Below, piece by piece: positions 673 through 64,000 of a stretch of 64,000 bases of DNA (its first letter is position 1; each line of letters begins with the position of its first letter). The DNA is from Antedon mediterranea (Eukaryota; Animalia; Echinodermata). The notes below the pieces were generated by a model that was not told where the DNA came from, ran no database searches, and saw only the letters and a list, made by a program, of their open reading frames with translations. The DNA is taken from positions 18,411,648-18,475,647 of the forward strand of contig NC_092673.1 in assembly GCF_964355755.1 (NCBI RefSeq), in the 5' to 3' direction. The translations under genes and the position numbers were made by a program.

Positions 673-798
673 ATATTCTATTTTGTTCTCATTATTATTA
701 TTATTGACCACATTATTTAGCAGTAATTCTTGCTATGGTTTGGGTTGACAAAAAAACCCCATTTTCACATAATGTCTGTTGTCAATATTATACACCAG

Positions 799-920
799 CA
801 ACATTGCGAAAGAAAGATGGTGACACTCCATTACATGCATATTTGTATATGTATTCAGTACCTACCTTAGAAATAGTAACATGTCTCACACAGCGTGGTT
901 CAGTAACATGGAAAAATAAG
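799..920 (+). CDS. Divergent ankyrin-repeat exon (TLRKKDGDTPLHAYLYMYSVPTLEIVTCLTQRGSVTWKNK)
   Basis: GDTPLH motif; homologous to the array exons. The donor reads GC instead of GT (AATAAG/gcagtg), so it is either a GC-AG exon or decayed. Confidence 0.55.
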
Positions 921-41900: not shown

Positions 41901-43436
41901 TCACCCTCACTGTGGCATAAGCTTGTAGGCTACCCTAATGAAATTCACACAGTATGTTCAGAATATTTTTGAAAGATCATTTCTTGATTTTGCGTTGTGC
42001 CAAATCTGGGATTGAGCGAGAAAATGAGAGTTTTATACAAAATTTTTACCTACAGTACCTCATGTCGTAATTTGTTTACTGCGAATGCGACGAAGTATGA
42101 CCGAAATTACGATACACCATTCGTTCGTTTCTATTTCACATTGCATCACACTTGATAAGTTGTTACAGATTAATTCAAAGTATTAAATAAAAGATGCAAA
42201 GCCTGGAATAGAGCTTTAAGCCTGGTTTCACCAGAACAAAATAAACTAATAATTCTATCAAATACAAATAAACAATGCTTAATCTTAACTTAAGATCAGA
42301 AAAATATATTTTAAAAAAAATGTATACAATTACGCTACCGTTAGCGCCCGTAAACAAATATATTAATAAAGCTATGAAACCTATGGTAATTAACTGTTTA
42401 TAGCATAAATTTAAGTATAGTTTACAATAAAATATAATATAATGAAATACATAACATATAAAGATATCCAAATATAAACTATAAAATTTACAGATACGTG
42501 TTTAAAAATGTCGAAATAAAAATTTTATTTATTTATTTATTCAGGTATATAAAAAACTTTACAAAAAGCAGAACAAGTCTGAAATTATTGTAGTACATAT
42601 AACAGCTAAACATTACAGAAAAAACAGATCCGTAAAATGAAGTATGCCCTCATTCGTCATACTTTTATCAAACTTGTGAATTTTTAGTTATAATACGGAA
42701 CACATACAATTTGTTAGTTATTGCCTCTTTTCTATTTTATATCCATTTTTTTAATCATAGAAAATAATGTTTTTCTATCTTCTAACACATCCAACATCTA
42801 GTATACCATTATGATGGATTTTAGTTGCGTGCAACAGCTCACTATGTAGGTTGGTTGGTTGGTAAACCCTAACTTGAGCACGCGTCTGCAGCCATGTACT
42901 GTATATGGCCTTGTTTAGTGGCATACTGCATATGACCTGTAATGATCTCCTGGTCTGGTTTTATTCTGAACATTCTTTTTTCTTCAACAGCATTATTGCC
43001 TGGATATCAGAGTGCATTGCATATTTTAAACTATCATTCAGAAAATATTTTCTGATTCAGACAAATCCCAAACTTTCGGTGGTACGCTCTTAATGTTTGA
43101 AAAAGTAAAGGTAGCATCTATCATAGAAGCAAAATGGATTATGCTCATTTAAATTATGGTTTTCTTCTTACTGTAATTGACATTGACCAATCTCGAATAC
43201 AGGAATATAAACACAGGTACATGAATTAAATGTCCACTACCCACAATAGAAGTGGAAAATAACCTTAGTAAATACTATTCTGACAAATAACTTTAGTTTA
43301 AAAGAATTCTGCCTACTTACAAATTCATAAACATGTTTAATGATTCTTCCTCTTTGGTTATATTATGTTACACAAAAACATGGAAATTAATCTAATGCAA
43401 TTTATTCTTTACAGATGACAGCGTAAATAAAGTGAA

Positions 43437-46400
43437 ATGGCAGATTCACAAGGTAATGCTCAGATGATTATAAAATTCAAATCAAAATCAGACTTCCATT
43501 CATAAAATTAATGATATAGAATTCTATTAAGTCGGTTTTATAGTCTTGGTACTAAAGAAGAAATGAGTATTATAAAATAGTTGACGATTTAATTGATAAT
43601 TGATAAATAATTTTGAAAATTAAAGGAGTAACAAAATACAAAATTGGCTACCAAATAAATGTCATTCTTAGGTCATTGAATATTAATGATAGGATAATCT
43701 TGAAGATCATTGCATTCACCATTTTAGCCTAATTTGGTACATTTTTTATTATTTTAATTAATAAAAGAAAATAAAACAAATCTATTTAAATCAGTGCATA
43801 TAACCTATAATTCGTCATAGTGACGAACTAAATCTGGTTTTATTTGAGTTACTGAAAAATATACTTTGAAATCTTATTTAATCAGTTGAAAATGATCCAT
43901 CTGCTATTGTTGCTCGTGGTACAGATGTTAAGAAAGCATACAATGAAGCCTTGACAGGGGGATCCGTCAAAGTCAATCTTGGAACGTTTAAAGTGATTGG
44001 ACAGGAAGGAGTAGGTAAAACATGCCTCATAAAAGCCTTACTTGGAAAGGAGTAAGTACTATTTAAGTACAGGAAAATTAACATAAAGAAAGTTAACTAA
44101 AGAATACAAACTAGCCATTTTCTTTCATTTCACAGGAGAAGATCTTGGATATTTTAAATGGAACATATAATATTGATAGTCTGTCATGTCATGATATCAA
44201 AAAGTTCATAATTTTATCTTAACTGTTAAAAGGGGGAGTGCACACCCCTAGTCCCTCCCCCTTGTTTCTGCACCTGTTTCAATAAACCACTTGTATTAAA
44301 GTGTCACAATTTGAATACTGATTTCAAATAATAATAATACAGTAATAATATTTATTCGGCAAAAGTTCTTAAAAGTACGTTTTACATTTCATCTTGCCAG
44401 GAGCAAGTAATTGGCATGAGCCCAAGCCGAAAACTGCTGTTACTCCATCAATGATTTTCACTTCAGATTTAACACCAAACATGATGTTACAGATGGAATA
44501 GCACTGATAAGAACTGTAAGCACAAAATGGACAGAAGATTATGACGATAGTGGTAAACATGAATATATTTACATTATTATTATCATTATAAACACTGACA
44601 GCATAAGTGAATAAAGATCTCACAGTAAAACAGTATACTACTTATTGAAACATAAATTGAAAATAGTTTTGGATATTAATTTGCATATTAGCATTAGATT
44701 AACCTGAATAATGTACATAGAGACTGATTGTCAACCATCTAATTTTTTAAATTTCATTTCTTATGCATACTTTGTTACATTGATTGGTGAATGAACAAAA
44801 TTGGTGAAATGTTTTAAATATTATAGATATTTATTAATATTTAACTATTAAAAATCTATTGTCCCTAATTCCCAAAAAAATAAAAATTTTGAAAAAAAGC
44901 GGGTCATTTTGAAGTACTTTCACCAAAAATTAGTCGAAAAAAAAATCATTTAACTGAAATACAGACGGTTTTTTGTTCAAAAAATAACTTTGACTTCCAG
45001 TCAAAGTTTTTGATCAAAACATATCTCATTATGCAACGCGCTTGTTTGGCTACTCTGTATGCATAATCATAAAACTTCCTCGCGATCTGTGTGAAAACAC
45101 CTTCTCAACCGTGACAAGTTGTAAACAATCCTAATTAGCATCATGCATAATGCATACTCATGGTTTGAAATCTTTGTTTCGCTGGCGACGATTTTCCAGA
45201 CTAAATGTAATCAAATAAATTCACCTGTTAATTACGTAAACTTGTTGTTTTTGGCTCGAATTTTCGACTTGAAGTGAATAACTTTAATATTACTTTGATA
45301 TGGCCAATTTAAATTTAGAATATTTTGATTTGTGTTTCAAGGGACAATACATCTTTAATAAAACCAATATGATTATATTTTTCTACAGGTAATCCTTCAA
45401 AACAGTATACAAAAATGGTCGCTGATAAACTGAGAGAAATGGTAAGTTCATTTAAATAGTGCCTAGATGACAATTCTAATACTGCTAAATTATATAAGTC
45501 TTAAACCAAACAGCATTGAATGATTAGAATTATGTAGACAATGCTTAATATCTTGTTTTTTTCTTGTGCCAGGTTGACAAGGAATCTCTAGCAGAAGGTA
45601 GGCCTATGGAATTCCTTTAAATTTAGTTTCTTGTCAATAATACTTGAAGATAAGAATATCTAAGAATTTTAATGTATTAATGTTATGCTGCTGCACAACT
45701 TGTTTTAAACATTTGCAGTTCTAAGAGACATAAATTAACGTTTTTATATTAGCTGAGTTTGAGTAAAGTTTAATTCCCTTGCTGGTAAAGTTCTCGTTTC
45801 AGTTTAGCCTTATAATTCCTGTGATTTAATGTTCTGCTCTAATAGACAATTTTGTTTTGTAATAATAAAACTTTCAGTTACTATTATAATTTGTATTACT
45901 GTATTTTGTAACTAGAATAATACCAATTATTTACAAAAATTATAATTTTTCTCATAAGTTATTGACAATGCACAACCATTTAGAATAATCTGATATTTAA
46001 AAAATGTATTTTCCCAATCTAAAGTAGCTAAAGAAACATAAAAACTCCATTGTGGTTATTTAATCAATTAACCAATCTGTATAACACTTTTATAAATCTA
46101 CTATGACACTGATATTGACTTTAATGATAAAAATAAAATATTGATTACTACTACAAAAATGACAACAACAGTGATGATAATGAATACAACAATGATAATG
46201 AGATCAATGGAAATGATTAGAATGATAACTGATGAGCAATGATGATAATAATAATGATGATAATATTAATGATGCTATACATTTTAAGTGTTGAGTGTGA
46301 CCAAAATAAATATTTCACTGCAGGTACTGAAGCTATTCCATTTGATACAGAACAGCAGTTAGATAAAGATGTAATTCAGGCTATTGAGGAAAATAAGGAG

Positions 46401-49400
46401 GAAACCTTGAAAGACACGTTTAACATCTGGGATCATGGGGGACAATTGATGTACCATGGTCTACAGCGTGTAAGTTATGATTGTATTTGCTTTGAATAAA
46501 GTCCATAGACATATAGTATTCTTCTATTCTTCAATATAATAACAACATTGATTATTTACACAGTGCTCAAATAAAGGTTGTAAGTCCATAGACATTTTAT
46601 TCTTCTATTCTTCAATATAATAACAACATTGATTATTTACACAGTGCTTAAATAAAGGTTGTAAGTCCATAGACATTTTATTCTTCTATTCTTCAATATA
46701 ATAACAACATTGATTATTTACACAGTGCTCAAATAAAGGTTGTAAGTCCATAGACATTTTATTCTTCTATTCTTCAATATAATAACAACATTGATTATTT
46801 ACACAGTGCTTAAAAACTTATTTTACAATTTGTTAAAAATATTTATTTAATACACTATTAATTTTTAATAGAGAACAATTACACTTGACAAAAAGATCTC
46901 AATGTTTGAGTATTGACGTTTTATCTGAGAAACTTCCTTTTAGGGACCAATTACAGAGGGAAATAATATTTGTACATATTTCTTTTTTCCTAGATGTTCA
47001 TGACATCGGAAGCCCTTTATATCGTAGTGTTTGATCTCAGTGTGAACCTTCAGGATCGTGCTATCTTCAGTGCTTCAAATGGAGTAAGTATTTAAAGACA
47101 ATGTAAGGTAAAGGTATTTGTGATTAAAAAATACCTACCAGATGAGTGAGACGATTAAGAAAAACATATAATAATTATTTTATTTTAATCAAATAAAGAT
47201 ATAAAGTGTAGTGTCTTTTTTTTCCAGGTTAAACGTGAAAATCATTGTACCAATCTCCAGTTCATATTATCTTACATCCAGACAGTTGATTCTCATAGTC
47301 GTATTGTGAGAAAAAACAAAGAAAAGGGAGTTCACGAACCAACTATCCTTATTGTGGGTACACATAAGGGTAAGCTTGGTAAGACTGAAGAAGAACAAAA
47401 TGTTGAGGTTAATACTTCCATTATTAAAATTAATCAATCAATTTCTGTTCTAAAAGCTAATGTAAAGTAACTATGACTACTAGAATACTGTATCGAATAC
47501 ATTTTTATCAGAAATTCTCATATGAATGTATTTAATACAATAGTCTTGTAGTCTGTGAAGTATTTATATATCATTTAAAAAACATGTTTTCATTTTTTTA
47601 AATTGTTTACAACCAGGCAAAGAAGGCCTTTAAACAGATTCGAGATGCACTTAAACATAAAGTGTATGAAAAACATGTCTACCACCAATATTTTGCCATT
47701 GAAAACAGCCAACCAACTACAGATAAGAGCTTTAGTGATCTCAAACAAGTTATTGATACACTTATGAAAGCATTAGAACAGCCTTTTCCTTTAAAGTGGA
47801 TGCGTTTTCGATGTGATCTACATGATCTAAGGAGGAAAAAACATTTTTCTTTGTGTCCAGTTAAAGAGGTGAGTTTAATCATCATTTGACTCGTTGACTG
47901 AGGTAAATTTAATTGGCATCATTCCTGAGTGTTTTGTTTTCAGATTAGAAATATGTTGGAAATAATAATATTTAAAAAAGTATAAACAAAAAACTCCACT
48001 CACTATTATATATTACTATATATATATAACTACTATATAATAATAGGGACCACAGTGGAAATAAGTTGCTTTTTGTACTTTTCTGTGTTTTTATCCTTGT
48101 TTGATCCACTTGATCAACAAAATGAATAAATAAAATATTAAAATTATTTAAAATTGAAAACTGATTTTTAAAATGGTTTTTGTCATTCATTCATTCAGTT
48201 TGTCATATAGAGATAGCAATATTTTTGTCATATTTTACATCTTGCTCTAAATCTAAATGGTAAAATAAATGTTAATGTGATAATCCTATCCATGCTGGTA
48301 TGGTTTCCTATCTGAAAAAATCATAAGAGCATCACATCGGCCTAGTATTTTTTATGGAATATTTGTCGCAAGATTGACAAGGCATTCTGTGAGAAAAATC
48401 GCAGTATACGTTTCCCCCATCCTGAGAGTGACATTTTCCTTCAGATCCAACATTATGCAGTAAATGTTATCAATTAAACAAACAAATTTCTTTTGTACTT
48501 CAAACCATTTCAGGCTGTAAAGGACAAAACTAATATTATAAATGTATACCTACCTATGGTTTCATATTTCTTATATTTTATTTGTATCTGAATAGTAAAC
48601 AATTTCTTTCTTTAGCTCAAAATGCTGGCAAGTAAGAATGGTATTGCAGATGAAAAACAACAATCCTTTCTTCTTAACTTTTTGTACGATCTTGGTGAAA
48701 TTGTTTACAGGCCTGACAGCAAATTATTGAAAGATAAAGCGGTGTTGGATCCGATGCGGCTAGTGGAAATTGTCACTGCTTTTGTAACAGTCATTCCACC
48801 AGAATTTCAAGTAAGTAGGTTCATAAAAATGTTAATTCAGTGTTCCTTGGGGAATTAATAGAGGTATATGTGAATTTCTATAGGCACTGTAGTATCAAAA
48901 GCAATGTCTGACAGTTACATTTAGTGGTAAATTGTATATTAGATGTGTAATGGACTAAACTATGTCATTTCATCTCTAAGTATTTATCCATATTCTGGTA
49001 TTTTTTCTCAACATAATTTCTGCATCCCCTTCAGATTCTAACACAAAATTATAAGTATGCCTAGTTAGTGGTGTTTTTTTTAGCTTCCTATGTTTAGGAT
49101 GGCTTTTGATAATCTTGACAAAGGCATACTGGAGGAAGACTTATTGCGTGAATTATGGAAAGAGCGTAAAGTTGACGAAGGAAAGAATTTTGAGTTCCTT
49201 GTCGCACTGATGATTCAATTAGGTTTCATTTGCAAGAAAGAGACCACCAGCAGCCATGTGACATCTACAGTAGGTTTTGTTAAATTATCTTTTCTAACAT
49301 GTTTTGCATTTAATATTATGTATAAAAAATGGTTTTTAGTATGATAAACACACTCATTTCATTAGTGAAATTTTACATAAAATTTAAAAACATTTTTAGG

Positions 49401-51420
49401 ATTCGTACATATTTTGATTTAACTTTCTGCTGAAGATGTTTTAAACATGTACAGGAAATGATCTTTTTTTCATTAAAAGAAATCTAAATGGCATTTTTAC
49501 AAATCAACAATTTCAGGGATCTGTTGGAAAGCGATCATTCTTTGTGCCACTACGCCTTGCTTTCAAGACAGAAACTGAAGTGAAATCAATGCCTGATGAT
49601 CTACATTCTATCAGTATCTATTACGACTTTAAGGGATATCTGCCAGATGTATTGTTTCCATATATGATTATTGATTTCCTCAAAAAATTTCAAAAGGAAG
49701 GCGTTGACCCAATACTGTCATATAACCATGCTGCACTTTACTTCAACAAAGATCATCATCTGACCATATCTCTTGTCAAATTTGCTACTAAGGAGAATGA
49801 GAGAAAGTTTTTGTTAAAGGTACTGTGTTGTACAATCTCTTGTGAATTTTCAATAAATATTTAAACCAACTTATTTTGAATTGATAGAAGTTGATTAGTC
49901 AAACACAAAACAATGCTGAAACCCGCTGCAAATTATCATTTAGTTTGTAACACTTATTACAATTGCCTGTATTATCCTAATCTTTCTTTTACTTATTTTT
50001 GTTGTTAAATATTAAGTCAGAATTTACTCTACATGTGCATAATAATTCAAATGCAGATATCAAAATATCAACTACTGTACTTTCTTTTTTTCCAGGTGAC
50101 TATTAAAAGAATAAATGCTTTTAATGAAACTAATGAGGAACCTTCATCTGAAGCATGTAGAGAGGTATGTTATCATATTATTTGATAAACCATGAGCACT
50201 ATCTAAGATTGTTTATAGATAATAATTTTTACTAAATATTTATAATTAAAGTTTAAAAATTATTTTGGGGCAGTGTAATCAAAATAGTGGTTAACAATTA
50301 TTTTCATTAAATAAAATTTCTTTTGAACAACCAAAAATAGTATAAGCGAACTTACAGTACGTTTCGAAACTTGAGTTGAGAATGAAACCTGATAGGTTTC
50401 GAAACGTACTGTAAGTTCGCTTATACTATTTTTGGTTGTTCAAAAGAAATTTTATTTAATACCTATTCCACGACCAGATGAAATTCTTCCAAAATTATTT
50501 TCATTATCAGTCAATTTCAATGTATTTGACCTTATAATTCTGTAAATTTGTAATTTCAATAATAGAAAAACACATGATGCTTAGATGACACAAGTCTCCC
50601 CAACATTTCCAACTATCAAAGAAAATATCAAAAAGATATCTTTTCACACATAAAATCGAAGATATTAAAACCATTTTAACTTTTTTTTTAAACTATAATA
50701 TTGTAAATGTGAGTGAATAAATGTGTGCAGCGGATTCAAAAGGTAATCAAGTTTTTGTTATTGATTGTGTCTTAATTTGGTATTTGTAGTTGGATTTATT
50801 TATGTGATTGGAAAACAATATTCAATGTATATTTTTAGGTTTTGTTAACAATCCAGAAGTCATTTGAACCTTCTCAAGATGGTGGTAGAAGAGGGATTAA
50901 ATTTGAGAGATGCATACTTTGTGGTGTATGTAGTGATACATCAGAAAAGAAGCACATTCAAAATCTTGAAAATTTCCAGTATGTGAAGTTGCCATGCTTC
51001 AAAACTGGCAAGTCTGTTACGATGGATGTTAAACGTTACAAGCGGCTATTTGGAGGTAAAAAACATAAACATAAGGATACAAAGTATATCTTTTTAAAGA
51101 CTAACACTATTTTGTTTATATTTAAATGAATTCTATGAATAGGATTGGTACAGTATTATAGTTTATTACTATTTATCTTAAATCCTGTTGAACCAAACTT
51201 TTAGAACATAATATTGTGGCTACTGTAAATAACTATAAAAACAGTACTATGGGTAGATTTAGACTTCCAAGGAGTGAGTGGCTTATATTGATTAATTATC
51301 TCCTATACAGTACCATGTTGACTGTATGATAAAAGTCTCGTGGTTAGTGTTCAATTTTACTTTTTCACAGACGTCCAAGATGATAGAGAGTTACTGCAAT
51401 CTGTCAATATTCTTAAATAA
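43437..51420 (+). CDS. Roco-family ROC-COR module 1 (677 aa if ended by exon 51371-51420)
   Basis: Exons 43437-43452 (ATG, MADSQ), 43886-44051 (P-loop GQEGVGKT), 44467-44552 (switch I TDGI), 45389-45441, 45573-45597, 46324-46469 (WDHGGQ), 46994-47083 (LYIVVFDL), 47228-47407 (IVGTHK), 47617-47868 (PLKWMRF), 48616-48810 (LNFLYDLGEIVY...VLDP), 49084-49269, 49517-49819, 50096-50164, 50839-51055, 51371-51420 (stop). All phases are consistent. Confidence 0.88.
44852..45354. mobile_element. TTAA-flanked MITE (Kolobok-like termini)
   Basis: TTAA/AAATCTATTGTCCCT ... AGGGACAATACATCT/TTAA. Confidence 0.7.
46498..46812. repeat. ~81-bp minisatellite, about 4 copies
   Basis: TAAGTCCATAGACAT units start at 46498, 46581, 46662 and 46743. 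Confidence 0.95.
50310..50492. mobile_element. Short fold-back insertion, Penelope-like
   Basis: Perfect 65-bp inverted repeat (50306-50370 / 50396-50460), a GACCAGATGAAATTCTTC tail, and a 14-bp direct repeat AATTATTTTCATTA on both sides. Confidence 0.65.
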
Positions 51421-52108
51421 AAGGCTTGACCTGTAATCTGATTGGCAAACACTAGACTTTATTGTTTTCATAATCTAGCAATCATTATTATTCAGATCTA
51501 AAAAATTAACAATTCAGTTATCATATTAAAATAATATATTGTTATCAACTAAAAAAATAGCCACTGATCCCATAGTTTTACAACTCGTTTTGCAATGCAG
51601 ATCTGTTTATTTCTTGAAATGTTGTGTAGAATATCGGTTATATTTTGTTTTAAAAACCTAGTACTTTTGGATTATTGTACCTTACTTTCTTCCACCTTCT
51701 TAGACTGTACACAAGGCCGTGATTATGAAAATGAAATTATTTGTACCATTCCACGAATATAAAACATTCATTATTGGTTTTATATAACATCTAAGTAGAC
51801 ATGCATTTCATGTAAATTGTCATCTTAATAGGAGTGTCCACTGAGTAGGGGTTGGCCGTAGTGGTAAAACATATATTGCCTCTGTTGTGCAGGAAAGTGT
51901 CTGCTTACCAAAAGAGGGGCTCTGCTATTATACATTAAATGAATTCTTGCTGGATTAATTGCCATTTGAAGTCATTGCATTAATTGATTTAAACAAATTT
52001 TAATTTATAGATAATTATTTATCACAAAAGAAAACAGTTATTGATTTTTTATTTCTTAGCCTTATATGGCATGGTTGGTTTTTATATAATAAAATTATAT
52101 TTTATCAG

Positions 52109-55100
52109 ATGAGAATATTCCATCTGCTATTACTGCTCATGGTACAGATGTTCAGGAAGTGTACACTAAGGCATTGACTGAGGGATCTGTCAAAATCAAT
52201 CTTGGAATGCTTAAAGTGATTGGGCAGGAAGGAGTAGGTAAAACATGCCTCATAAATGCTGGTCTTGGAAACAAGTAAGTACTAGTTAAAGGACAGTGAA
52301 ATGAACTATGAAATATGTGAGTTAACTATTAAAGAAATATGATTCATTTTAAAAACCAATTCCCTAATATTGCAGCCTTAAAAGTAACTCAAGTTCACTA
52401 ATGGTTTCAAATAATTTTCACTTCAAATTTAACTCCAAGCATAATGTTTACAGCACTTAAAAGTGACCCAAGTTCTTTATTGGTTTCAAATGATTTTCAC
52501 TTCAGATTTAACCCCAAACATGATGTGACAGATGGCATAGCAGTGATAAGAACTGTAAGCACAACATGGACAGAAGATTATGACGATAGTGGTAAACATA
52601 AATTAATTTAGCTTTTCATCCCTCTTGCAGTGAATTATGATAAACTATTGAAAGATAATTGGAGATCAATACCACTACTGACATACAGTAGTATATTATT
52701 GGATACTATGTTAATGTTGATATGAACAGTCGTGTAACTGGCTGATTTCTGCATGATTTTTTTTTTTTTACTTATTAAATATTGTTACTCCTGATCTTTT
52801 CTGATGCAAAACATTTGATGGTTTGCTACTTTCAGGATTGTATTTCATGCAATTAACATTATCAAGTAGTTTGAAAGTGGTAACCTAATAATCAAATATT
52901 ATTCACTTAAATCAACACAAGGACCTACAGAAAAAATAACTTTGTTTGTTATTTTCAGGTGATCCCTCAAAACAGTTTACGAAATTTGTCGCTGACAAAA
53001 TGAGAACAATGAAAACTGAAAAGGTATGTCAACAACATTTTATTTAAAACATTAAAATAATACAAAGAGCATTTATACTTCTTTTATTTTGGGAAAGATA
53101 TCAATCTAGTCCACTGGACTTACTTACTAACGTAAGTTCAGTGAACTAGATTGATATCCTTCCAAATAAAAATTACACTACCTGGATGAGAATATTCATA
53201 TCCGCATTTATACTATTATTACTAGCCTAAACTGAGGGGTTTGTTTTCTTAATGTAAATCAATGATTCTTTAACAAGCAAATCAAAAATAATGTGGTTTG
53301 GAAAGTAAATGTATTTTCTATTTAGGTAAAAATATAAAGAATATTTAAATCAATATCGCTCATCGGCGATGAGCTATGCTCGACGCGATTATGAGATCAT
53401 GTTTCGAATATGAGCACTGTTTCAATAATTTAACAGTATGATTTATAAAGAATATTTAACTATTTATAAGGTTTGTTTTCATTATATGAGTTAGGTTGTC
53501 CAGAAACCACCTAAAGATGATGATGAGTCTGGAAATATTGAGGGCCATGATGATGATATTAATGACAAACACACCAGTAGGAAAGACAACCACAGCAAAA
53601 ATGATGATCATGACAACCATAGCAAAGATGATGATCATGACAACCACAGCAAAGATGATGATCATGACAACCACAGCAAAGATGATGATCATGACAACCA
53701 CAGCAAAGATGATGATCATGGCAACCACAGCAAAGATGATGATCATGACAAACAGAGCAAAGATGATGATCATGACAACCACAGCAAACAGAGCAGTGAT
53801 AATGATCATGACAAACAGAGCAGTCATGGTAATGATTATTTTTTGTAACTTTTAAAATTCTGTTTTTTTAAACAATAGTATTAAGAATTATGTAATATTA
53901 ATGATGAACCTTTTTAATGACTGTAACATAACATGTGCAATCCTGAGATTTGATCCCATTCACAATATAGTGGAGTTTATACTGTACCGTGATCGTACCA
54001 TTTTACAACAATTAAATTGGAAGGTAATACTGTATCTGCTATATTAATTAATTATTTGCAGTTATAAATTAATTGTTGTTTTTCTAATAGAAATATTTTC
54101 AAACTTGACTAAAGAACTTTTAGACATTTTATTGTATATTTATATGATTAAATGTGAGTAAAATAATTTAAAAACTACTATATAATTTATAAAGATAATG
54201 ACTAAAACAATGACAACTCAAACATTGACTATAATGATTATGTATACAAAAACAATGATGAGAATGATTGTTATGAGTATATATATTGTTGACAATTACA
54301 ATGATGATGATGACAATGATTATGACAAAAACTACAACATTCATGATAAAGAAGATGAAACTACAACATTGATAATGATGATAATAATGATGAAAACTAC
54401 AACATTGATAATAATGAAGATGAAAACTACAACATTGATTATAATAACAAACAATAACAACAACAATGATGAATTTTTAATGACTATATAATGATGATAG
54501 TGATGATAACTATGATAATGAGATTACTACAATGGTGCTTTTTGGAGTATTACAAAAAAAAATCTGTTTTAACTACAGGTACTGACATTCAATTTGATAC
54601 AGACCGGCAGTTAGATAAAGATGTGATCAAGAAAGTTAAGGAAAATAAGGAAGAGACATTGAAAGAAACATTCAACATCTATGATCATGGTGGACAATTG
54701 ATATACCATGGTATTCATCGTGTAAGTTATTTTAAGTGATGTTTTATTGGGGAGGTGTTTATTCAAATAAATACCATCCTAATTGGTATAATTAATACAT
54801 TATTTTAGTTTAAACATCTTTTGAAACTAACTTCCGTGATACAGTGGGCCGTTTTGGCCTAAGACGGAAAGAAGTTTTAGACGGCTTTCAACATGGGAAG
54901 AAGTATATCCTATGGTCCTAATGAGACACAGATATTGAAAAGTTATACAGACCTGCCAGCTTATTAAACAACTCGGCTATTGGGATTCACTTGATTTTAA
55001 ACAAAAGGTCTTATCATCAGTTCTCCTGATGTAATTTTATATACTATTCCCCACAATATACTCCAATGCTTTATGAATATATTTAACTACTATACTTTCA

Positions 55101-58100
55101 CACCCGCGGTCCGAAAATAAACAAAAAACTAAAATGGGTAACGGCCAACTTAGTTACAAGATGTTGACTCACCTTGAACCCGGAACTAACTTTACCACCG
55201 ACACTTAAAAATCTACCGATGCAACCAAACATTTCGTTTTAAAACCCTCCATGATATCTTCCTAAGAGAGAAATATGGAGCAATATCGTATAGGCCTGCT
55301 AAAATGTTGTAGAATATACCTATCGCAGTACACATATATTGACTGCTTAGAGGTTAAAGACCCCTTCCCTGCAATTTTGGACGTTTTTTGGAAAATAATA
55401 CATATATATCACTTTAAAAACATTAAACCATGTCATTTCTTGTCTTAAATGTACGTTTTATGGTAAATTATGATAAAAAGTGAGAAACAATGCACTACCT
55501 AAGTAGCTCGCGGCGATCGACCTCTCGTGGACGGTCTTAGGCCTAGCCTAGCAGCTAGCTAGGCTTAGTTTTGTAGGCCTAGCTGGTAAACATCGGTAAC
55601 GTACGAACATCGTACGCGAGCTATATACCTAGCCTGACGTTGTATAGTTGCTGCATTAATTGTCTTTCTATTTTTGCCAGACTCCGTTGATACAAATTGG
55701 GGAAAACCCGGTATTTTCGCTGAAAAGTTAGGAGTCTTTCATTTGTTTTGGCCTCACGATCGATCGAAAAGTGGGCGAATTACAGGTGAAAAACAAAAAT
55801 ATCAATCCGCGCGCAATGCATTTTGGGATTTATAGCGGGCCGCTATAATTATTAGAATCGACTTATTTTTCACATTTTTAACCATTTAAAGACGAAAAAA
55901 GTTATCGCAATAGGACCATATAGTATTATTTTTACATTAAATATAGTTTGTGATCTTAAATTAGATCTAAAAAACGTAGGGAATGGGGCTTTAAATATAA
56001 GATTTGACATCCCCGAGGGAATGATATTATGTTCGAGCATGGAGAAATTTCGAGGGAATATATATTTCCCGAAGCGCCAGCTGAGGGAAATATATAATTC
56101 TCGAGAACTTAATATCATTCCCGAGGGGATGTCTAATCTTATATTTTACCGATATAAAAGGCGATATCTGTTATATTACATAGCCAACAACAAGTAGAAT
56201 ATCTGCTGGGTCGGGTAGCTAGGCTAGGCCTCCTTTTTGTATTGTATGTAAACAGGCTGCCCATTCACCTTACATTTCGAAGAATAATATACAGATAATT
56301 ACTAATTAATGATTCCTTGGCAACAAAATATTCACTAGCCTAGGTCGTTTAAATAATAACATAATAATTTCCATCAATACATTATAATAATATTATCAGG
56401 TAGGCCGAATAAATAATAATTCGTCTTCTTCGATCGAGCCGAATCACCTGCCAGATGTTCAGTGCGTCGCGCGCATACCGGTTACTATTGTGAGTATTAA
56501 CCAATCACAAACAGTCTTTCATCACATCTAGGGAGGATTAATAACAAATGAGGGCGCTATGTATGCATAGTTTAAATAGTTTAGTTGATTAATTTCTTCC
56601 AGCAAGTTCTGTGGCGGAGCGCATGAAGCGTTGTCTTGTGATGGAGGGACAATTTCATCGCGAGTACAAGATCCAGTAGATGACTTTTGTTTATTTACGA
56701 AAATTACACAGTCAATATCATCGTACTCGAGAATTTATATGATTAATGACAGGGAAACGATAATTACGCGAAAATTACTCAGTCAATATCATCGTTCTTG
56801 AGTATATATACGATTTACGATCCTCGCAGCGTTAGTCATGTGATGCAGTTTCAACCAATCAAGTTTGCGTATTTACATAGATGTAATATATAATAATAGT
56901 CTTTATTTATGTTAGGGACCACTACCGAATAAATGGTACTTGTTCATAGGCCTTTAAGAATATTAATAAAATATTTGAATAACAAGCACATTATTTTTTC
57001 CAGATCTTCGTAACATCAGAAGCACTTTACATCGTAGTGTTTGATCTCAGTGTGAACCTTGAAGATCGTGCTATCGTCATTGATTCTAATGGCGTAAGTA
57101 TTGTAAGACTAATTAAGGTATTGTAGTAGTTGTGCTGGAACAAGAAAACAATTTTATTTTTGTTTTTTTGATATTTTTTGGTTTTTTTTTCAGAAAAAGC
57201 GTCAACATCATTGGACCAACCTCCAGTTCATATTATCTTACATCCAGACAGTTTATTCTCATAGTCGTATTGTGGAAGAAGACAAGAAGAATGAAGTTCA
57301 CAAACCAACTATCCTTATTGTGGGTACACATAAGGGTAAGCTTGGTAAGACTGAAGAAGAACAAAATGATGAGGTAGTACTAAATATATTTCTATAGCTA
57401 CAGTACCTTAAAAATAACCATAATCAAAAACATATTACTGCTCCAAAAACACCTTATTAACCAACTTCATATAGACATATAGTATCAATCAATCAATTTT
57501 TAAATATTTTAAATAAATGACAATATATGACTACAGTAATATGCTCATTACATAATATATTTTTTCTACATATTTATAAACTATTTACAACCAGGCAAAT
57601 ATCATTTTTGAGAAGGTTCAAGATGCACTTAGAGGGAAACTGTATGAAGAACATATATATCAATATTTTTCCATTGAAAACAGCCGAGAAACAACAGATA
57701 AAAGCTTTAGTGATCTCAAAGAGGTTATTGATGATCTTATGAAAGCTTTAGAAAAAGATAAACCTTTAAAGTGGATGCGTTTTCGATGTGACCTTCATGA
57801 CCTCAGGACGAAAACACATTTTTCTTTGTGTCCTTTAGAAGAGGTAAACTTTATTTTGTAACCACATTAATAATCTTACTTTGAGCATTAGAACTTAATT
57901 AATACTTTCATTAACCATATTTTGCCAAATCAGAGGAACTCCACACCCAAATGTATAGAAAACTCGGATTTCAAAATCTGAGTTTACTACAGTAGTTTCA
58001 TTCTGACCACTGAAATGGACCGATCCATTATTAATCGGGGGGATTAAAAAAATACTTTATACCTTACGTTGGTAAATGTATCTCTACCATGCTATAAAAA

Positions 58101-61100
58101 CTGAATATGATTTCCTATTTAATAATTATGTTTTAAAAATCTAATATTATAACCATTATTTCTAGCTCAAAATACTGGCAACTAAGAATGGTATTGAAAA
58201 AGAACAATCAATCCTTAACTTCCTGTATGATCTTGGTGAAATTGTTTACATGCATGACAACAAATTATTAAGAGATAAAGCGGTGTTAGATCCGATGCAG
58301 CTGGTTGAAATTGTTACTGCTTTTGTAACAGTCCTTCCACCAAAGTTTCCAGTAAGTACAGTAGGTAGGCCCATGTATATTCCAAATTGTAAATATGTGT
58401 TTCTGCTGTCACCCCTATGAAAGTTCGGTGCAGTTCCTTGTTCCTTGTGAAAAAATTGTTTTTGATCATAGAGGTACTTCTTTTTTTGGTTTAGAAGCCC
58501 ATTTTTAAGAAAGCTTTTGTTAAACTTGACAAGGGCATACTGGAAGAAAAGTTGTTGCGAAAATTGTGGAAAAAGCGTAAAGTTGACAAAGGAAATAATT
58601 TTGAGTTCCTTGTAGCACTGATGATTCAATTAGGTTTCATTTGTGAGAGAAAGACAACCAGCAGCCAAGATGTGGCAAGTACATCTACAGTAGGTTTTGT
58701 TGAGTTATATTTTATAACATATTTTGCATACAAGATTGTGTAATTTAATGGTGAAATTTTACATCAAATTTCAAAATATTTGTAGGGTTATGACATTTTG
58801 GTTAAACTTTCAGCTGAAGATGTTTAACATGTACAGGTAATGATCTTAATTTTCTTAATCTAAATGGCATTTTATAAATCAATAATTTCAGGAATCTGTT
58901 GAAAAGCGATCATTTTATGTTCCACTACGCCTTGCTTTCAAGACAGCAAGTGAAGTGACAGAAACGCCTGATGAATTTCCAGCTATCAGTATCTATTACG
59001 ACTTTAAGGGATATCTGCCAGATGTATTGTTTCCATATATGATTATTGATTTCCTCAACAAATTTCAAAAGAAAGGTGTTGATCCAATACTCTTGTATAA
59101 TCATGCTGAACTTTACTTCGACCAAGATCATCATGTGACCTTATCTCTTGTCAAATTTGTGACTATGGAAGATGAAAGAAAGTTCTTGTTAAAGGTACTG
59201 TATCATATAATTTGTTGTGAACAAGTCATAATTTAATCTAAACATAAACTCAAATTCAAATATCACATCACTTTTCTTCTTTTTTTTCAGGTGACTATTA
59301 AAAAAACTCCTGCTTGTAATGAAACAAGTAAGGATGAACCCTCTTCTGACGTTTGTAAAGAGGTTTGTTATTTCATATATTCAAGGGGGATCCAAGGGTT
59401 TCCCACAGGGTCAGGAACCCCCCCCCCCCCTTCCAATGTTCAAAGTGCCCTTTTTTAGAGTTTCAATATTTTATTTGTGTGACATGTTTGTGTGTTTGTT
59501 AGTATTCACAGCGGCAAAACAATAAAAGAAATTTCCCAAGATGTGAGCTTCATTGCTGGACGGCCCTAAAAAATTGTTGTTGAAATAAATAAAATCAAAT
59601 AGAAATTTCCGATTGCTGATCAGAAGCAGCATGATACCTCTAGTAAACTGTCTAGTTTCACATACTACAGAGGGCCACACACCACATTGTGGGGAATATG
59701 CCTATTAAGTCTAATACTTGAGACGATCTCTTAAATTCAATTGCATTACTTACGCTCTGTTACGCATGCGTATTTGTGAGAATAACTTGCACGTGAAACC
59801 ATTATAAATAAGATTAAAAATAGTAGCGAAAGATATGATTTATGTAACAAAAAACAAAAACAATTTTTTGGGGGCCTTATTAGCGTTTAGAATAATCATA
59901 TCGGAAGTACCTGTATCAGGGCTTGCCCTGACGTTCGCATTGAACGCAAAAAATGTTATATATTGGGTGAAGGTGGAAAGAATGGGATCGTTTTGCTTTT
60001 TGCTAGCGCGCTCAGTGGAATGTCATTTCCGGCAAACTAAAGGTGCCATATATCATGAATTTTTCCAGCCATCTAGGGGTATCTTTAAACAAAATTCCCT
60101 TCACCACATCTGACTATTAAGGGGGAGTGGGGGTGGGGGCTTATGGTTCAAATACTCATTCTCGGAAGTGCCCTTTCCTTCTGGGAACCGAAAATGTCTA
60201 GATCCGCCCCAGATATCAGAATTGAAAACTATTAATTATTGCTAAGATCTATTATTTATAAACTTTATTGATTTCGGTCAACATTATTAATTAATTATTA
60301 TACCAAATCATTACCTCAATGCTTGCAATTGAAACTTTAATGAAGTATTTTTTGGTTAGGTGCCAAATCTTTGGATTTATAACATTTGAGGCATGTCATA
60401 TTTTGAAAGTGATAATTCAGATTTTTATTTTAGATTTTTATCTCTTTTTTTTATTTCTTATTGGTTTAATTTTCCCTTTTCTTGTATTGTGAAACTTTTG
60501 TGTTTTTATTGTCATATTGTATTTGTAGGTTTTGTTAACGATCCAGAAGTCATTTGAACCTACTAAAGATGGTGGTAGAAGAGGGATTCAGTATGAGAGA
60601 TGCATACTTTGTGATGTATGTAGTGATACATCAGAAAAGAAACACATTCAAAATCTTGAAAATTTCCAGGACGAGAAGTTGACATGCACCAAAACTGGCA
60701 AGTCTGTTACGATGGATGTTACACGTTACCAGCGGCTATTTGGAGGTAAGAGTAATATAGATACAAATTTATTTTCATTTATTTATTTGACCAAAAAACA
60801 ACAAATGAATGAACAATATGATTATTACATAATGTAATTACAGAAAAATATACAAATAATGAATGTTTATGAGTGTAATGGTACAAATAATGGCATGAGG
60901 TAAATGATGAAAGGATATATTTTAACGAGGCGAAGTCGAGTTGATATATATATATAACCTTTCATCAATCACCAAATTCCATTATTTGTACCATTACAAA
61001 AATATAAAACATTCATTATTTGTTTTATAACATCTAAATAGAATCCTGTCATTTGAATCAAATAAAAAGTAAGCCTAGCCTAATGCCTACATTTGATTCA

Positions 61101-64000
61101 CATTGATTAAAACAGTAACATTTGTTTTTTTATAATATATTAAATATTAAATATTATATTTATATGGATTTATAAACACACCTACTGTATTCTTAATTAT
61201 GTCAACAAACAACCAAACAATCCTAGGCATAGAAAGGCTAAAACGCCTAGACTAGGCCTAGCCTAATACTAACAGGCCTAGGCCTACTCTTACTCTAGCT
61301 AGGCTGAAAGGCAGCAGACACTTCGACAGGCAACTGGAACTCATCTAGGCTAATTATGTTTTTTCCAATGATTCCACATCTTGTAGAGATGTTCCCATTA
61401 ATTGATCAAAATTCTACAAACAATCTAAAGCTAATTTAAATGCCTTTTTGATCCAAATGCAAATTATTTTTTTTTGTACACGAAAAAAAGTACTATTAAA
61501 CAATCATTTTAATAGTGCCTACTATTGCACTCCATGTGACCAACAATCAACCAATCAAATGACAGGGATTTATTTACATTGTTACAACATGGTTTTATTA
61601 GCTGTGATATCTTCATTCCTCAGTAGTAGCACTATCAGAATCATTATTGATAATCTATACGTTGTTACAACATGCTGCTATTAGCTATGATATCTTCATT
61701 CCTCTTACCAGTAGTAGCACTATCAGAATCAGTATAGATAATCTATACATGCTACTATTAGCTGTGATATCTTCATTCCTCTTACCAGTAGTAGTACTAT
61801 CAGAATCATTATTGACAATCTATACATTGTTACAACATGCTGCTATTAGCTGTGATATCTTCATTCCTCTTACCATAGTAGTACTATCAGAATCATTATA
61901 GGTAATCTATACATTGTTACAACATGCTACTATTAGCTGTGATATCTTCATTCCTCTACCAGTAGTAGTACTATCAGAATCATTATTGACAATCTATACA
62001 TTGTTACAACATGCTACTATTAGCTGTGATATCTTCATTACTCTTACCAGTAGTAGTACTATCAGAATCATTATTGATAATCTATACATTGTTACAACAT
62101 GATGCTATTAGCTGTGTTATCTTCATTCCTCTACCAGTAGTAGTACTATCAGAATCATTATTGACAATCTATACATTGTTACAACATGCTACTATTAGCT
62201 GTGATATCTTCATTACTCTTACCAGTAGTAGTACTATCAGAATCATTATTGACAATCTATACATTGTTACAACATGCTACTATTAGCTGTGATATCTTCA
62301 TTCCTCTACCAGTAGTAGTACTATCAGAATCATTATTGATAATCTATACATTGTTACAACATGCTGCTATTAGCTGTGCTATCTTCATTCCTCTACCAGT
62401 AGTAGTACTATCAGAATCATTATTGATAATCTATACATTGTTACAACATGCTGCTATTAGCTGTGATATCTTCATTACTCTTACCAATAGTAGTACTATC
62501 AGAATCATTATTGATAATCTATACATGCTACTATTAGCTGTGATATCTTCATTCCTCTTACCAGTAGTAGTACTATCAGAATCATTATTGATAATCTATA
62601 CATTGTTACAACATGCTGCTATTAGCTGTGATATCTTCATTCCTCTTACCAGTAGTAGTACTATCAGAATCATTATTGATAATCTATACATTGTTACAAC
62701 ATGATGCTATTAGCTGTGATATCTTCATTCCTCTTAACAGTAGTAGTACTATCAGAATCATTATTGATAATCTATACACTGTTACAACATGCTGCTATTA
62801 GCTGTGATATCTTCATTCCTCTTACCAGTAGTAGTACTATCAGAATCATTATTGATAATAGCTGTGACATCTTGTAAAGTGGATAAATATTTTTATTTTA
62901 TTTGCAGACGAAAGTGGGCCAAAAGAAAGGAAAGGAAGAAAAACGGATCAAGGTAATTGATTGAAATATGTTGGAAAATAAGAGAGAGAAAATAAAACAA
63001 ATTGAATATTTACAGCATCTCAAACTGGTTTTGGTCAGAATTGGGGGAAACAATAATGATATATATCTCTTGGTATCTTTATTTTATTTTATTCCAATCC
63101 AAAAAAGCTGAATTGGAGATTTTTTCCAAAGGCTAAATTTTTACAAATTATAAATTTCACATACTTTTTCAAATAAATATTATAAATTTTAAACAGTTTA
63201 AGAATTACACATAAAACAAGAAGAAAAAAAAACATTTAAAGTCATTATTATTTAAGAATTAAGCAGACAAGTGAGATATAGAAGAAGCGGTCATTTATTA
63301 TATCTGGATAATGAGACACCAAATTGTCCATATGCATTTTATCATATTTTAACTTTTAATCGCTTTTTAAAGATTTTGTGCAATAATGTATGTGTTCTAT
63401 ATTTTAATTTTTTGTTTATATTATATATTATATATATCGGTTTTTTATCGTACTAATATTTGCCAATCTTTAAGAAGAATTTCTATTGTTATGTTATTAT
63501 GATAATGGACAAATGAAGCTTTTCAATATTTCATTAATTTTTCATTTGCAGGAAATACAATGGCAGATTCTGAAACTTTGAACAGTTTCCAAGACCTAAA
63601 AGGTGGTCTCAGTGGGTACTTTGATGGTGAAAGATACCATTGGCTGAGGTTCCTACTATTTGATCAATTGGATGTCGGGGACCTTACAAATAAAGATTTC
63701 AATGGACATGACTTACTCAATACACTTGAAGACAAAGGTTTCATCTCACCAACCAATGTTAACTTGCTGTTAGAGATTACAAATACATCTGAAATCCAAC
63801 AGGCCAAAGATCTTGTATCAAAGTATATGAGAGACAACAACATTCAGGATAGACATACTGGTAAAGCTAAGTTGTCACCTTACAGAAAGCGACTGTTTAA
63901 GGCCCTGAAACAAGTTGACCGAGATGCATTACGTAATGTTACTGCTTACTATGACTTGACAAAATATAACTTCTCCAATGTATGGGATGCAGTTCTCTAT
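52109..64000 (+). CDS. Roco-family ROC-COR module 2 followed by a linker and tandem DED (3'-incomplete)
   Basis: Exons 52109-52274 (GQEGVGKT), 52506-52591, 52959-53023, 53495-53828 (His/Asp repeat), 54579-54721 (YDHGGQ), 57004-57093, 57194-57373, 57595-57843, 58166-58351, 58495-58689, 58892-59194, 59291-59362, 60529-60745, 62908-62952, 63552 to beyond 64000 (DED). Intron positions match module 1; no frameshifts or stops seen. Confidence 0.88.
53080..53203. mobile_element. Short fold-back insertion, Penelope-like
   Basis: Inverted repeat (GATATCAATCTAGT...ACTAGATTGATATC), an ACTACCTGGATGAGAATATTCA tail, and an 11-bp direct repeat GCATTTATACT on both sides. Confidence 0.65.
53495..53828 (+). 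CDS. His/Asp-rich exon inside ROC 2 with a 27-bp repeat (DNHSKDDDH)n
   Basis: tag/GTT ... CATG/gtaatg; 334 nt, phase 0-1, the same phases as the 25-nt equivalent exon 45573-45597. Confidence 0.75.
55330..56895. mobile_element. Copy of the 9932-11785 repeat family carrying a nested MITE
   Basis: Extensive identity to 9932-10605 and 10610-11785. Confidence 0.8.
55358..55990. mobile_element. TTAA-flanked MITE (Kolobok-like) nested in the repeat
   Basis: TTAA/AGACCCCTTCCCT ... AGGGAATGGGGCT/TTAA. The empty site CTTAGAGGTTAAATATAAG is seen at ~9953. Confidence 0.8.
60852..61580. mobile_element. Second copy of the long-hairpin repeat at 29971-30885, same orientation
   Basis: Colinear identity, with an internal deletion near 61460. 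Confidence 0.8.
61596..62870. repeat. ~89-bp minisatellite, about 14-15 copies
   Basis: Unit TATTAGCTGTGATATCTTCATTCCTCTTACCAGTAGTAGTACTATCAGAATCATTATTGATAATCTATACATTGTTACAACATGCTGC. Confidence 0.95.
63552..64000 (+). CDS. Tandem DED exon, runs off the window
   Basis: cag acceptor, phase 1; WLRFLLFDQL...DLLNTLEDKGFISPTNVNLLLEI...LSPYRKRLF resembles caspase-8/cFLIP-type tandem DEDs. Confidence 0.8.

Follow-up and report, generated by a model that had tools for sequence, protein, structure and literature searches.

The 64,000-nt stretch of Antedon mediterranea DNA analysed here (the window; contig NC_092673.1, positions 18,411,648 to 18,475,647 of the forward strand) appears to carry a pair of neighbouring Roco genes that lack a kinase and belong to a large crinoid family assembled from phase-1 exon cassettes, rather than one gene spanning both ROC-COR modules; we assign this reading a probability of about 0.58. 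The first gene (gene A) would start at the ATG at 43437 and encode a 651-residue kinase-less ROC-COR protein, likely ending in a 16-residue terminal exon (51371-51420) with an AATAAA hexamer over the stop codon. In the second (gene B), the second ROC-COR block would lead through a linker exon (62908-62952) into a DED exon beginning at 63552, and the product would be of ROC-COR-DED type, as in the RefSeq models XP_071948758 and XP_071948757. A single protein holding both modules, which the original prediction had proposed, is the weaker reading.

By reading the junctions directly and rebuilding the locus exon by exon, we found two intact ROC-COR exon blocks arranged head to tail on the forward strand, at 43886-51055 (module 1) and 52109-60745 (module 2), as originally predicted. 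Both frames are open and the splice sites are canonical throughout, with GT-AG at every intron (27/27 acceptors AG, all donors GT) and phase 1 at the start and end of both blocks. Module 1 is preceded by a 38-nt start exon (43415-43452) that follows an acceptor AG at 43413-14, reads MADSQ from the ATG at 43437 and ends in a donor (AAG/GTAATG) leaving phase 1 in the MADSQ frame; its homologue in the RefSeq model P0026 is read in a different frame, with 15/17 residues identical. The module 1 block has 11 exons (43886-44051, 44467-44552, 46324-46469, 46994-47083, 47228-47407, 47617-47868, 48616-48810, 49084-49269, 49517-49819, 50096-50164 and 50839-51055), the last of which ends in phase 1 at 51055 (GGAG/GTAAAA). 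The module 2 block has 13 (52109-52274, 52506-52591, 52959-53023, 53495-53828, 54579-54721, 57004-57093, 57194-57373, 57595-57843, 58166-58351, 58495-58689, 58892-59194, 59291-59362 and 60529-60745), opening with the phase-1 acceptor ttatcAG/AT and closing in phase 1. Two module 2 exons, 52959-53023 and 53495-53828, are missing from module 1; the latter is a variable, acidic and His-rich insert exon with a 27-nt coding repeat (DDDHDNHSK, 7.6 copies, 53585-53788), and resembling inserts are also present in P0014 and P0021. The two modules are identical at 477 of 625 aligned residues (76%), with a dS of 0.28 (NG86), and both contain the P-loop GQEGVGKT and a DHGG motif. DNA homology extends over 43869-51059 and 52092-60749 and ceases at the outer exon edges. 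The introns that flank the units are mosaic in make-up, combining tandem repeats with pieces of other units.

The assignment of these blocks to the Roco family draws on domain searches with the window exons and with their closest RefSeq relatives, P0017 (XP_071948791; 88% identical to module 1 over 542 columns) and P0006 (XP_071947619; 85% identical to module 2 over 538 columns). Single window exons gave no Pfam Roc match at E up to 0.01, and two of them matched COR-A below its cut-off of 35.3 bits (48616-48858, 30.9 bits; 58166-58420, 25.5 bits). In the relatives, Roc scored 51.6 bits for P0006 and 26.3 bits for P0017 (cut-off 27), and COR-A scored 47.4 and 49.3 bits, respectively, both above the cut-off. 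The COR-A scores of the window exons and of these close relatives place COR directly after Roc in the modules. COR-B matched weakly (18.9 bits) in P0014 (XP_071947615) alone, and COR-B-mediated dimerisation of the window proteins is assumed here by analogy. A PDB search with a family profile including P0017 and P0006 matched the Roc domains of the M. barkeri and C. tepidum Roco proteins and of LRRK2 (4wnr, 3dpu, 6hlu and LRRK2 Roc chains); DED chains were absent from its matches up to E = 1. The G4 motif for guanine specificity is [NT]KxD, or THxD in LRRK2; both modules read GTHKGK at this place and thus lack the Asp. Of the 24 retrieved relatives in which the G4 stretch is present, 23 read THKG or THKA (THKA in P0005 and two others), and the exception is the first unit of P0014 (CLVATHMDKLSG), in which we read by eye a canonical THMD. 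Look-alikes of P0014 in the ESM Atlas form clusters of 292-1171 aa with Pfam Roc and COR-A, and come mostly from molluscs, sponges and bacteria. Neither a kinase nor a death domain was matched among the window ORFs scanned with Pfam or matched by tblastn; the claim that the window has no kinase therefore held, and the layout is not of the DAPK1 type.

Module 1 has a terminal coding exon at 51371-51420, which the original prediction had named and which we recovered with a phase-1 acceptor, the peptide DVQDDRELLQSVNILK and a TAA stop at 51418-20. The peptide equals the C-terminus of P0017 at 16/16 residues, and no counterpart of the exon was found downstream of module 2. An AATAAA hexamer (51416-51421), seen on reading the sequence, overlaps the stop codon and is a putative polyadenylation signal of a module 1 transcript. 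The 688-nt spacer that follows (51421-52108) contains a fragment of a dispersed repeat (51729-51799), copies of which lie at 22583-22625, 30096-30157 and 60981-61042. Enumeration of candidates in the spacer gave no ATG exon with a good phase-1 donor, and tblastn gave no match there to the 5' exons of any paralogue at E up to 5, in agreement with the original observation that no start exon for module 2 lies between the modules. The acceptor at 52109 scores best of 50 AG sites scored in 51080-52124 and probably receives some upstream exon; the nearest known phase-1 donor is that of module 1 at 51055. An in-frame ATG ahead of the P-loop (52207-52209; M-LKVIGQEGVGKT) is a possible start if module 2 is transcribed alone, and this Met is the start of the RefSeq models P0006, P0039 and P0022. 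Since it is kept in 13 of 15 first exons of the family, it is not by itself diagnostic of an own start; module 1 has T at that position. Of the three models, P0006 and P0039 lie near module 2, and none of the three begins in an upstream ROC-COR. The original prediction had named two tandem paralogues as the scenario that would refute its reading; we favour that scenario, with the terminal exon shared with P0017 on its side and the failure to find a first exon for module 2 against it.

A 320-nt contig of sequencing run X1, a run guessed to be RNA (share 0.09), aligns to 52109-52271 with 9 mismatches; the match starts exactly where the exon does, and roughly 100 additional letters on the 5' side of the contig remain unplaced. 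If X1 is RNA, this suggests that the equivalent acceptor is used in a near-identical copy. Contig joints at 46375-54635, 47843-57820 and 48665-58214 look like switches between paralogous modules, not splicing. Across 44001-61126, the 15 listed joints of short Logan contigs do not include 51055-52109, which carries no weight given a further 437 joints outside that list.

The best-surviving alternative, which we consider unlikely, is one ROC-COR-ROC-COR-linker-DED protein of more than 1560 residues, in which the terminal exon is skipped, 51055 is joined to 52109, the COR domains pair within the chain and the short ROC-COR form is an alternative 3' isoform. The join stays in frame (RLFG-D-ENIPS), so the modules are indeed frame-compatible at 51055/52109 and the junction reads FGDENIPS as had been stated, and the joined reading continues for 1562 codons without a stop to the window end, with canonical sites. 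A strong acceptor on a module without an identifiable start exon also speaks for fusion, as does the retention of the P-loop and DxxG in both modules with a dN/dS of 0.46. However, phase compatibility is universal in the family. Phase 1 was seen at each of the cassette boundaries checked in the window (43452, 43886, 51055, 51371, 52109, 60745, 62908, 62952, 63552, 30917 and 32190), and the in-frame fit of neighbours therefore carries no weight. In addition, the conserved terminal exon and the AATAAA sit between the modules that would have to be joined.

Phylogeny argues against fusion as well. Module 1 pairs with P0017 (100/99 support), whereas module 2 forms a clade with P0002 (XP_071948758) and P0006 (99/99 support) in a tree with P0030, a kinase-ROC-COR-DD paralogue, as the outgroup row. 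A clade of modules 1 and 2 was rejected (delta lnL 113.9, AU p 4.6e-66) in a post hoc test chosen after an initial tree. Judged from this tree, the modules are of different paralogue lineages and are no local duplicate pair, and their nearest RefSeq counterparts are separate models with a single ROC-COR. P0002, P0006 and P0011 (XP_071948757) are ROC-COR-DED models, in P0002 and P0011 with the order ROC-COR-linker-DED. With different lineages and with P0017 ending in the exon corresponding to 51371-51420, the step from modules that can splice to one ROC-COR-ROC-COR protein was not borne out. No retrieved RefSeq model is 100% identical to the window, and the best exon match is 95%; relative to these models, the window would therefore represent another locus, haplotype or sister species. 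The order of the RefSeq accession numbers proved uninformative about synteny.

The end of the last COR exon of the family is present in 23 RefSeq models, none of which (0/23) goes on into a ROC exon. Sorted by motif and by eye, with Pfam run on 10 of the 23, they continue into a MADSE-type DED module (12), another DED-like pair (3), a death domain (2), a TM tail (3), the short terminal exon (1) or short unclassified tails (2). The family-type first ROC exon (17 occurrences) follows a kinase, Ank, DD, DED or a DED-like pair, linker exons or a short start of its own, or has nothing ahead of it; an upstream ROC-COR occurs there once only, in P0014. In this 1681-aa model, a ROC-COR unit preceded by Ank is linked to a ROC-COR resembling that of module 2, at the acceptor equivalent to 52109 (HLLS/TNENIPSAIT), and Pfam finds two COR-A stretches; its layout with two ROC-COR units via the same kind of junction counts in favour of a fused protein. 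On the other hand, its first unit belongs to another, divergent type of ROC-COR, and two neighbouring genes may have been merged in the model. RefSeq models are computed predictions, and P0005, P0026 and P0017 are clearly partial or merged, so RefSeq gene boundaries are weak evidence either way. Because XP_071947615 carries two ROC-COR units, we keep the pseudo-dimer idea as a minority reading. We consider it unlikely that the crinoid array makes ROC-COR-ROC-COR-DED chains of ~1,700 residues, with XP_071947615 as a second example, and that these turn the dimer-dependent GTPase cycle of Roco proteins into an intramolecular, asymmetric, kinase-free switch with a death-fold output; an isoform fused at 51055-52109 is likewise unlikely.

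Downstream, module 2 does run in frame towards a DED exon, but not directly as had been predicted: a 45-nt linker exon (62908-62952; phase 1-1, DESGPKERKGRKTDQ), missed before, lies between the two and is 75-87% identical to the linkers of P0002, P0004 and P0005. The DED exon (63552-64000) has a phase-1 acceptor, and its frame is still open where the window ends; beyond it, a TM tail like those of P0001 and P0002 may follow. A run from ROC-COR into a DED-bearing exon is seen in at least 12 RefSeq models of A. mediterranea paralogues, and the window exon shares 93% identity with the C-terminal part of P0002, whose layout is ROC-COR-linker-DED. Of the tandem DEDs originally described, the first half alone shows DED similarity in Pfam (PF01335, 22.1 bits, E 1.8e-4, below the cut-off of 35.9). 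Comparison of the two halves by hhalign detected no similarity (probability 0.3%), and the second half, which is helical, drew no Pfam match, so that a tandem DED is at most a candidate here. Sub-threshold but consistent hits came from paralogues with this type of exon, at 35.6 bits (P0012) and 26.1 bits (P0003), and a different DED-like pair in P0020 exceeded the cut-off with 45.5 bits. The AlphaFold predictions were poor (pLDDT 58 for the window DED exon and 47 for P0001), and a Foldseek search of the PDB with the pLDDT-58 model gave nothing at E up to 0.001.

Two further explanations concern the missing start of module 2, and both are improbable. First, one promoter may serve mutually exclusive cassettes, with the exon 43415-43452 spliced either to module 1 (to 51420) or to 52109, giving MADSQ-D-ENIPS followed by module 2 and DED. 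Both sites involved, the 43452 donor and the 52109 acceptor, are in phase 1 and join in frame, and the arrangement would account for the lack of a separate start exon in module 2; if true, it would yield two single-ROC-COR isoforms with different outputs. It nevertheless requires an 8.7-kb skip past 12 good exons, and the pattern is absent from the retrieved RefSeq models. Second, and with equally poor prospects, module 2 may be a start-less remnant of unequal crossing-over that is open but not expressed, with the DED exon forming a separate small gene. An in-frame ATG at 63560 (MADSETL) could start a separate product, and P0001 (XP_071949161), a 309-aa model that is the closest match to the DED exon (95%), starts at exactly this Met; the mosaic structure of the flanking introns also fits such an origin. 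Against this stand the intactness of module 2 in 13/13 exons, in the linker exon and at every splice site, the conservation of that linker exon, and a strong acceptor that precedes the ATG of the DED exon by 8 nt in the right phase.

Another gene of the array lies upstream on the same strand (21836-32720), with a ZU5 exon (21836-22360; Pfam 62.1 bits), UPA-like exons at about 23756-24473 and two DED-like exons, A (30917-31375) and B (32190-32720), which scored 24.9 and 23.1 bits for DED, both below threshold. The last exon, B, is closed by a stop at 32720, which is also how P0019 ends, and module 1 is therefore not a continuation of this ZU5/DED-like gene, a possibility that we ruled out.

Returning to the preferred reading of two adjacent genes, the 5' end of gene B may lie at the Met at 52207 or in an upstream exon that went unrecognised, or may be supplied by occasional splicing from the exon ending at 51055. 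Each product would act as a Roco-type switch under GTP control, and the output of gene B would likely be a death-fold adaptor that recruits other DED proteins, which would make gene B the ROC-COR counterpart of the DED-NACHT and DD-NACHT sensors known from other marine invertebrates. LRRK2, DAPK1 and CtRoco have been studied as dimer-dependent GTPase switches. If confirmed, the family would offer comparative material on kinase-free ROC-COR signalling, and a fused isoform, if it exists, would provide a natural single-chain 'dimer' for tests of the Roco dimer cycle. Our literature search did not find the ROC-COR-DED combination in print.

The closest known counterparts are P0017, P0002, P0006 and P0011, which belong to the same family, use the same exon cassettes and are 85-88% identical to the window over the ROC-COR core; they are automatic, partly truncated models annotated as 'uncharacterized protein'. 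XP_071947615 resembles the locus as the sole retrieved model with two ROC-COR units, the second of which is module-2-like (89% in the first exon, with the DDDHDNHSK insert), and differs in its first unit, which is preceded by Ank, strongly divergent and equipped with a THMD G4, and in its C-terminal TM tail in place of DED. The proteins share the Roc and COR-A core with CtRoco and the prokaryotic LRR-Roc-COR proteins, MFHAS1 and LRRK2, but the window genes have neither LRR nor kinase. DAPK1 (kinase-Ank-ROC-COR-death domain) represents a metazoan Roco group with a death-fold output, and in the excerpted text of its source the known Roco groups have one RocCOR unit each, the DAPK1 death domain being the only death-fold output described (PMC6337361). 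Module 2 is similar in that ROC-COR is followed by a death-fold adaptor domain; however, the window has no kinase, the domain is DED-like and not DD, G4 reads THKG, and Ank repeats belong to other members of the array. A DAPK-like kinase-ROC-COR-DD paralogue is present in A. mediterranea (P0030), outside the clade of the window modules.

Beyond the Roco proteins, the crinoid family may be compared with the sensors of other invertebrates. DED-NACHT and DD-NACHT sensors are described in amphioxus and sea urchin (PMC2575513), and Aplysia and sea anemones have ROC-COR fused with TIR or with death domains (PMC9334734, PMC5094078). As far as the excerpts of these sources go, the likeness consists in lineage-specific expansion, an NTPase switch coupled to death-fold or TIR adaptors, and domain shuffling; the same excerpts describe neither ROC-COR-DED proteins nor crinoid genes. 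The crinoid family, located on one chromosome, couples kinase-less ROC-COR to ZU5-UPA and DED-like modules, to Ank arrays and to TM tails, and its packing in phase-1 cassettes bears the genomic marks of a rapidly shuffled repertoire for innate immunity or cell death, with a Roco GTPase in the position that NACHT occupies in other invertebrates. Brown-algal ROCO genes, for which exon shuffling and alternative splicing have been reported and an immune repertoire proposed (PMC11378527), likewise form a family diversified by exon-level cassettes; according to the excerpted part of that work, single LRR exons are shuffled there, whereas in the crinoid the exchanged pieces are whole ROC-COR blocks together with death-fold or TM exons.

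We read four critical junctions of this AT-rich (~31% GC), intron-bearing window directly, and then reassembled both ROC-COR modules one exon at a time. Module 1 (43886-51055, forward strand) comprises eleven ROC-COR exons behind a 38-nt start exon (43415-43452) with an ATG at 43437, and module 2 (52109-60745, same strand) comprises thirteen exons; all donors and 27 of 27 acceptors in the rebuilt modules are canonical. The two intact tandem modules of the original prediction were thus confirmed in detail, and the coordinate at which it began, 43437, is exactly the ATG of the start exon. The two modules agree at 477 of 625 aligned residues (dN/dS 0.46, dS 0.28), and their DNA homology (72-93%) ends a few bases from the outer exon edges. 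The predicted in-frame join also holds: the exon ending at 51055 and the exon starting at 52109 are both in phase 1, the junction reads ..RLFG-D-ENIPS.. (FGDENIPS), and the joined frame runs for 1562 stop-free codons up to the window end. Phase 1 was found at every cassette boundary checked, namely the start-exon donor, both ends of both ROC-COR blocks, the acceptor of the terminal exon behind module 1, both ends of the linker exon behind module 2, the DED-exon acceptor and the acceptors of two upstream DED-like exons; any neighbouring cassettes would therefore join in frame, and the fit between the two modules is not meaningful.

All protein relatives that we found are RefSeq models of Antedon mediterranea, nearly all on one 36.19-Mb contig; none reaches 100% identity with the window, the highest value being 95% for an exon and 85-88% for the ROC-COR cores, so that the window would be a further locus, a different haplotype or DNA of a sister species. 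In a maximum-likelihood tree of the ROC-COR core (15 rows: the two modules, 12 RefSeq units and, as outgroup, the kinase-ROC-COR-DD model P0030; a motif filter omitted models without a complete core, such as P0018), module 1 pairs with P0017 (XP_071948791; support 100/99, 88% identity), and module 2 groups with P0002 (XP_071948758) and P0006 (XP_071947619; support 99/99, 85% identity). Constraining the two modules together was 113.9 lnL worse (AU p 4.6e-66, a post hoc value because the test was run after a similar earlier tree had been seen). Since the modules fall in separate clades, they did not arise by a recent local duplication within a single gene; they are two members of the family, and each has a counterpart of its own in Antedon mediterranea. 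These counterparts carry the same ends as the window. First, the C-terminus of P0017, ..KRLFG-DVQDDRELLQSVNILK, is identical in 16 of 16 residues to the terminal exon 51371-51420, whose stop codon is overlapped by an AATAAA. Second, linkers lead into the DED module in P0002 and P0006. Within the window, the terminal exon has no further copy behind module 2, and module 1 is followed by neither a linker nor a DED exon. We favour, at a probability of roughly 0.58, two adjacent kinase-less Roco genes, one encoding ROC-COR with a short tail and the other ROC-COR-linker-DED.

The linker exon of the second gene (62908-62952, forward strand, 45 nt, phase 1-1) separates module 2 from the DED exon (63552-64000, open at the window end), and P0002, P0004 and P0005 have matching linkers. 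The expectation that module 2 continues into tandem DEDs stood in that the DED exon can be reached, the route going via this linker. The second DED gained no support: Pfam DED matches only the first half of what the exon encodes, below threshold (22.1 bits), the two halves have no mutual resemblance (hhalign probability 0.3%), and the structure prediction was too poor to inform on a second domain. In the closest relatives, P0001 (XP_071949161, 309 aa) and P0002, low-complexity sequence comes after the DED module, and the chain closes with a hydrophobic C-terminal helix resembling a tail anchor, which in the AlphaFold model of P0001 covers residues 275-308 (block-mean pLDDT ~79-87 across residues 281-309). 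By analogy, the DED gene may end in a membrane anchor beyond the window end.

The 40 RefSeq models retrieved are automatic, some visibly partial or merged (P0005, P0026 and P0017, which starts in an intron), and serve as guides, not proof. Their cassette kit comprises ROC-COR, a MADSE-type DED module, a second DED-like pair, death domain, kinase, Ank repeats, ZU5-UPA, short linkers, TM tails and one 16-residue terminal exon. The end of the family's last COR exon is present in 23 models, whose continuations we sorted by eye and motif (Pfam on 10 of the 23): a MADSE-type DED follows in 12, the other DED-like pair in three, a TM tail in three, a death domain in two, a short unclassified tail in two and the terminal exon in one (P0017), while a ROC exon follows directly in none. 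Upstream of the family-type first ROC exon (17 occurrences) lie kinase, Ank, DD, DED, DED-like pair, linker exons or short own starts, and the proteins P0006, P0039 and P0022 begin at a Met immediately before the P-loop. The only occurrence with an upstream ROC-COR is P0014 (XP_071947615, 1681 aa; two COR-A and four Roc stretches by Pfam), in which an Ank-preceded, highly divergent ROC-COR ending ..HLLS is joined to TNENIPSAIT.. of a module-2-like unit with a TM tail.

P0014, where the annotation pipeline judged a similar join plausible elsewhere, lends some weight to a fused isoform encoding a single double ROC-COR-DED protein, a reading that we consider unlikely; the claim of one double-module protein is unproven. 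Also in its favour, the 688-nt spacer between the units, which holds a dispersed-repeat fragment, has no recognisable in-frame start exon for module 2, as had been noted; it matches none of the paralogues' 5' exons at E up to 5, and none of its candidate ATG mini-exons carries a good phase-1 donor. Furthermore, the acceptor at 52109 is intact and scores highest of the 50 AG sites in 51080-52124, which spans the gap between the modules, a rough ranking because the scoring matrix was built from only 25 other sites. Module 2 could alternatively start at ATG 52207, as in three RefSeq models, although a Met stands there in 13 of 15 family first exons whatever the context and is therefore not diagnostic. 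It could also be entered by a splice from the start exon at 43452, likewise in frame, which gives cassette choice from one promoter a slim chance. That module 2 is a start-less relic seems comparably improbable.

The intron downstream of module 2 (60847-61576) shares 81-85% identity with the sequence (29966-30873) that precedes DED-like exon A (30917-31375) of the neighbouring gene, and an 88-bp tandem repeat (61747-62859, 12.8 copies) comes next; such intron mosaicism is an expected trace of unequal recombination between cassettes, and the likeness points to cassette-level recombination in the array. The upstream ZU5-UPA-DED-like gene (forward strand) has its stop at 32720, ending as the RefSeq model P0019 does. 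Further upstream on the same strand lies a tandem array (4907-7155, also 792-3031; 6.9 copies of 327 bp, 94% matches). Each of its units contains an ankyrin-repeat exon (24.6 bits for Pfam Ank on 5023-5124) resembling the P0014 N-terminus, and the array represents an Ank expansion at the exon level. A 69-bp satellite (13291-20100, 98.5 copies, 97% matches), open in several frames on both strands with local GC up to 0.40, adjoins a reverse-transcriptase fragment (20186-20461, reverse strand, 19.7 bits, below cut-off), and the gap before module 1 contains a LINE-like element (36215-38531, forward strand) whose ORF is of the endonuclease/exonuclease/phosphatase type (26.6 bits). The 38-nt exon 43415-43452 is read in two frames, from ATG 43437 for module 1 and, in its P0026 homologue, as ..DDSVNKVKWQIHK after a DED tail, from where the frame runs wrongly through the next ROC exon until a stop. 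Transcripts that read through from unit to unit, or a merge in the annotation, might account for this reading.

The G4 motif of Roco GTPases is THxD or NKxD. Both modules have THKG instead (..VGTHKGK.., ~47354-47371 and ~57320-57337, in exons 47228-47407 and 57194-57373), and THKG or THKA is present in 23 of the 24 retrieved relatives holding this stretch, P0030 included; only the divergent first unit of P0014 departs from this, with THMD. As the base-specifying Asp is absent, the nucleotide preference of these Roc domains may differ from the usual one. The insert in module 2's Roc domain includes a coding tandem repeat with a 27-nt unit (53585-53788, 7.6 copies) that is translated as DDDHDNHSK repeats, an acidic, His-rich loop of variable length; P0014 and P0021 have longer arrays of a similar kind, and module 1 has none. 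At 52373-52526, a 79-bp stretch covering the acceptor region and the very beginning of the second exon of module 2 is duplicated (two copies, 85% matches), and P0021 starts within the equivalent stretch.

In the available text of a Roco review, every group described has one RocCOR unit, and the DAPK1 death domain is the sole death-fold output (PMC6337361). A phrase search of the literature for two, second, duplicated or double ROC-COR returned a sole match, which concerns LRRK2 dimers, and searches of the accessible text for Roco or COR together with a death effector domain, and together with sea urchin, amphioxus and Nematostella, returned no ROC-COR-DED combination. In the excerpts available, Aplysia and sea anemones have ROC-COR fusions with TIR, death domains or kinase (PMC9334734, PMC5094078), DED-NACHT occurs in amphioxus (PMC2575513), and brown algae have exon-shuffled ROCO genes (PMC11378527); as far as these excerpts go, all are related to the crinoid ROC-COR-DED arrangement but different from it.
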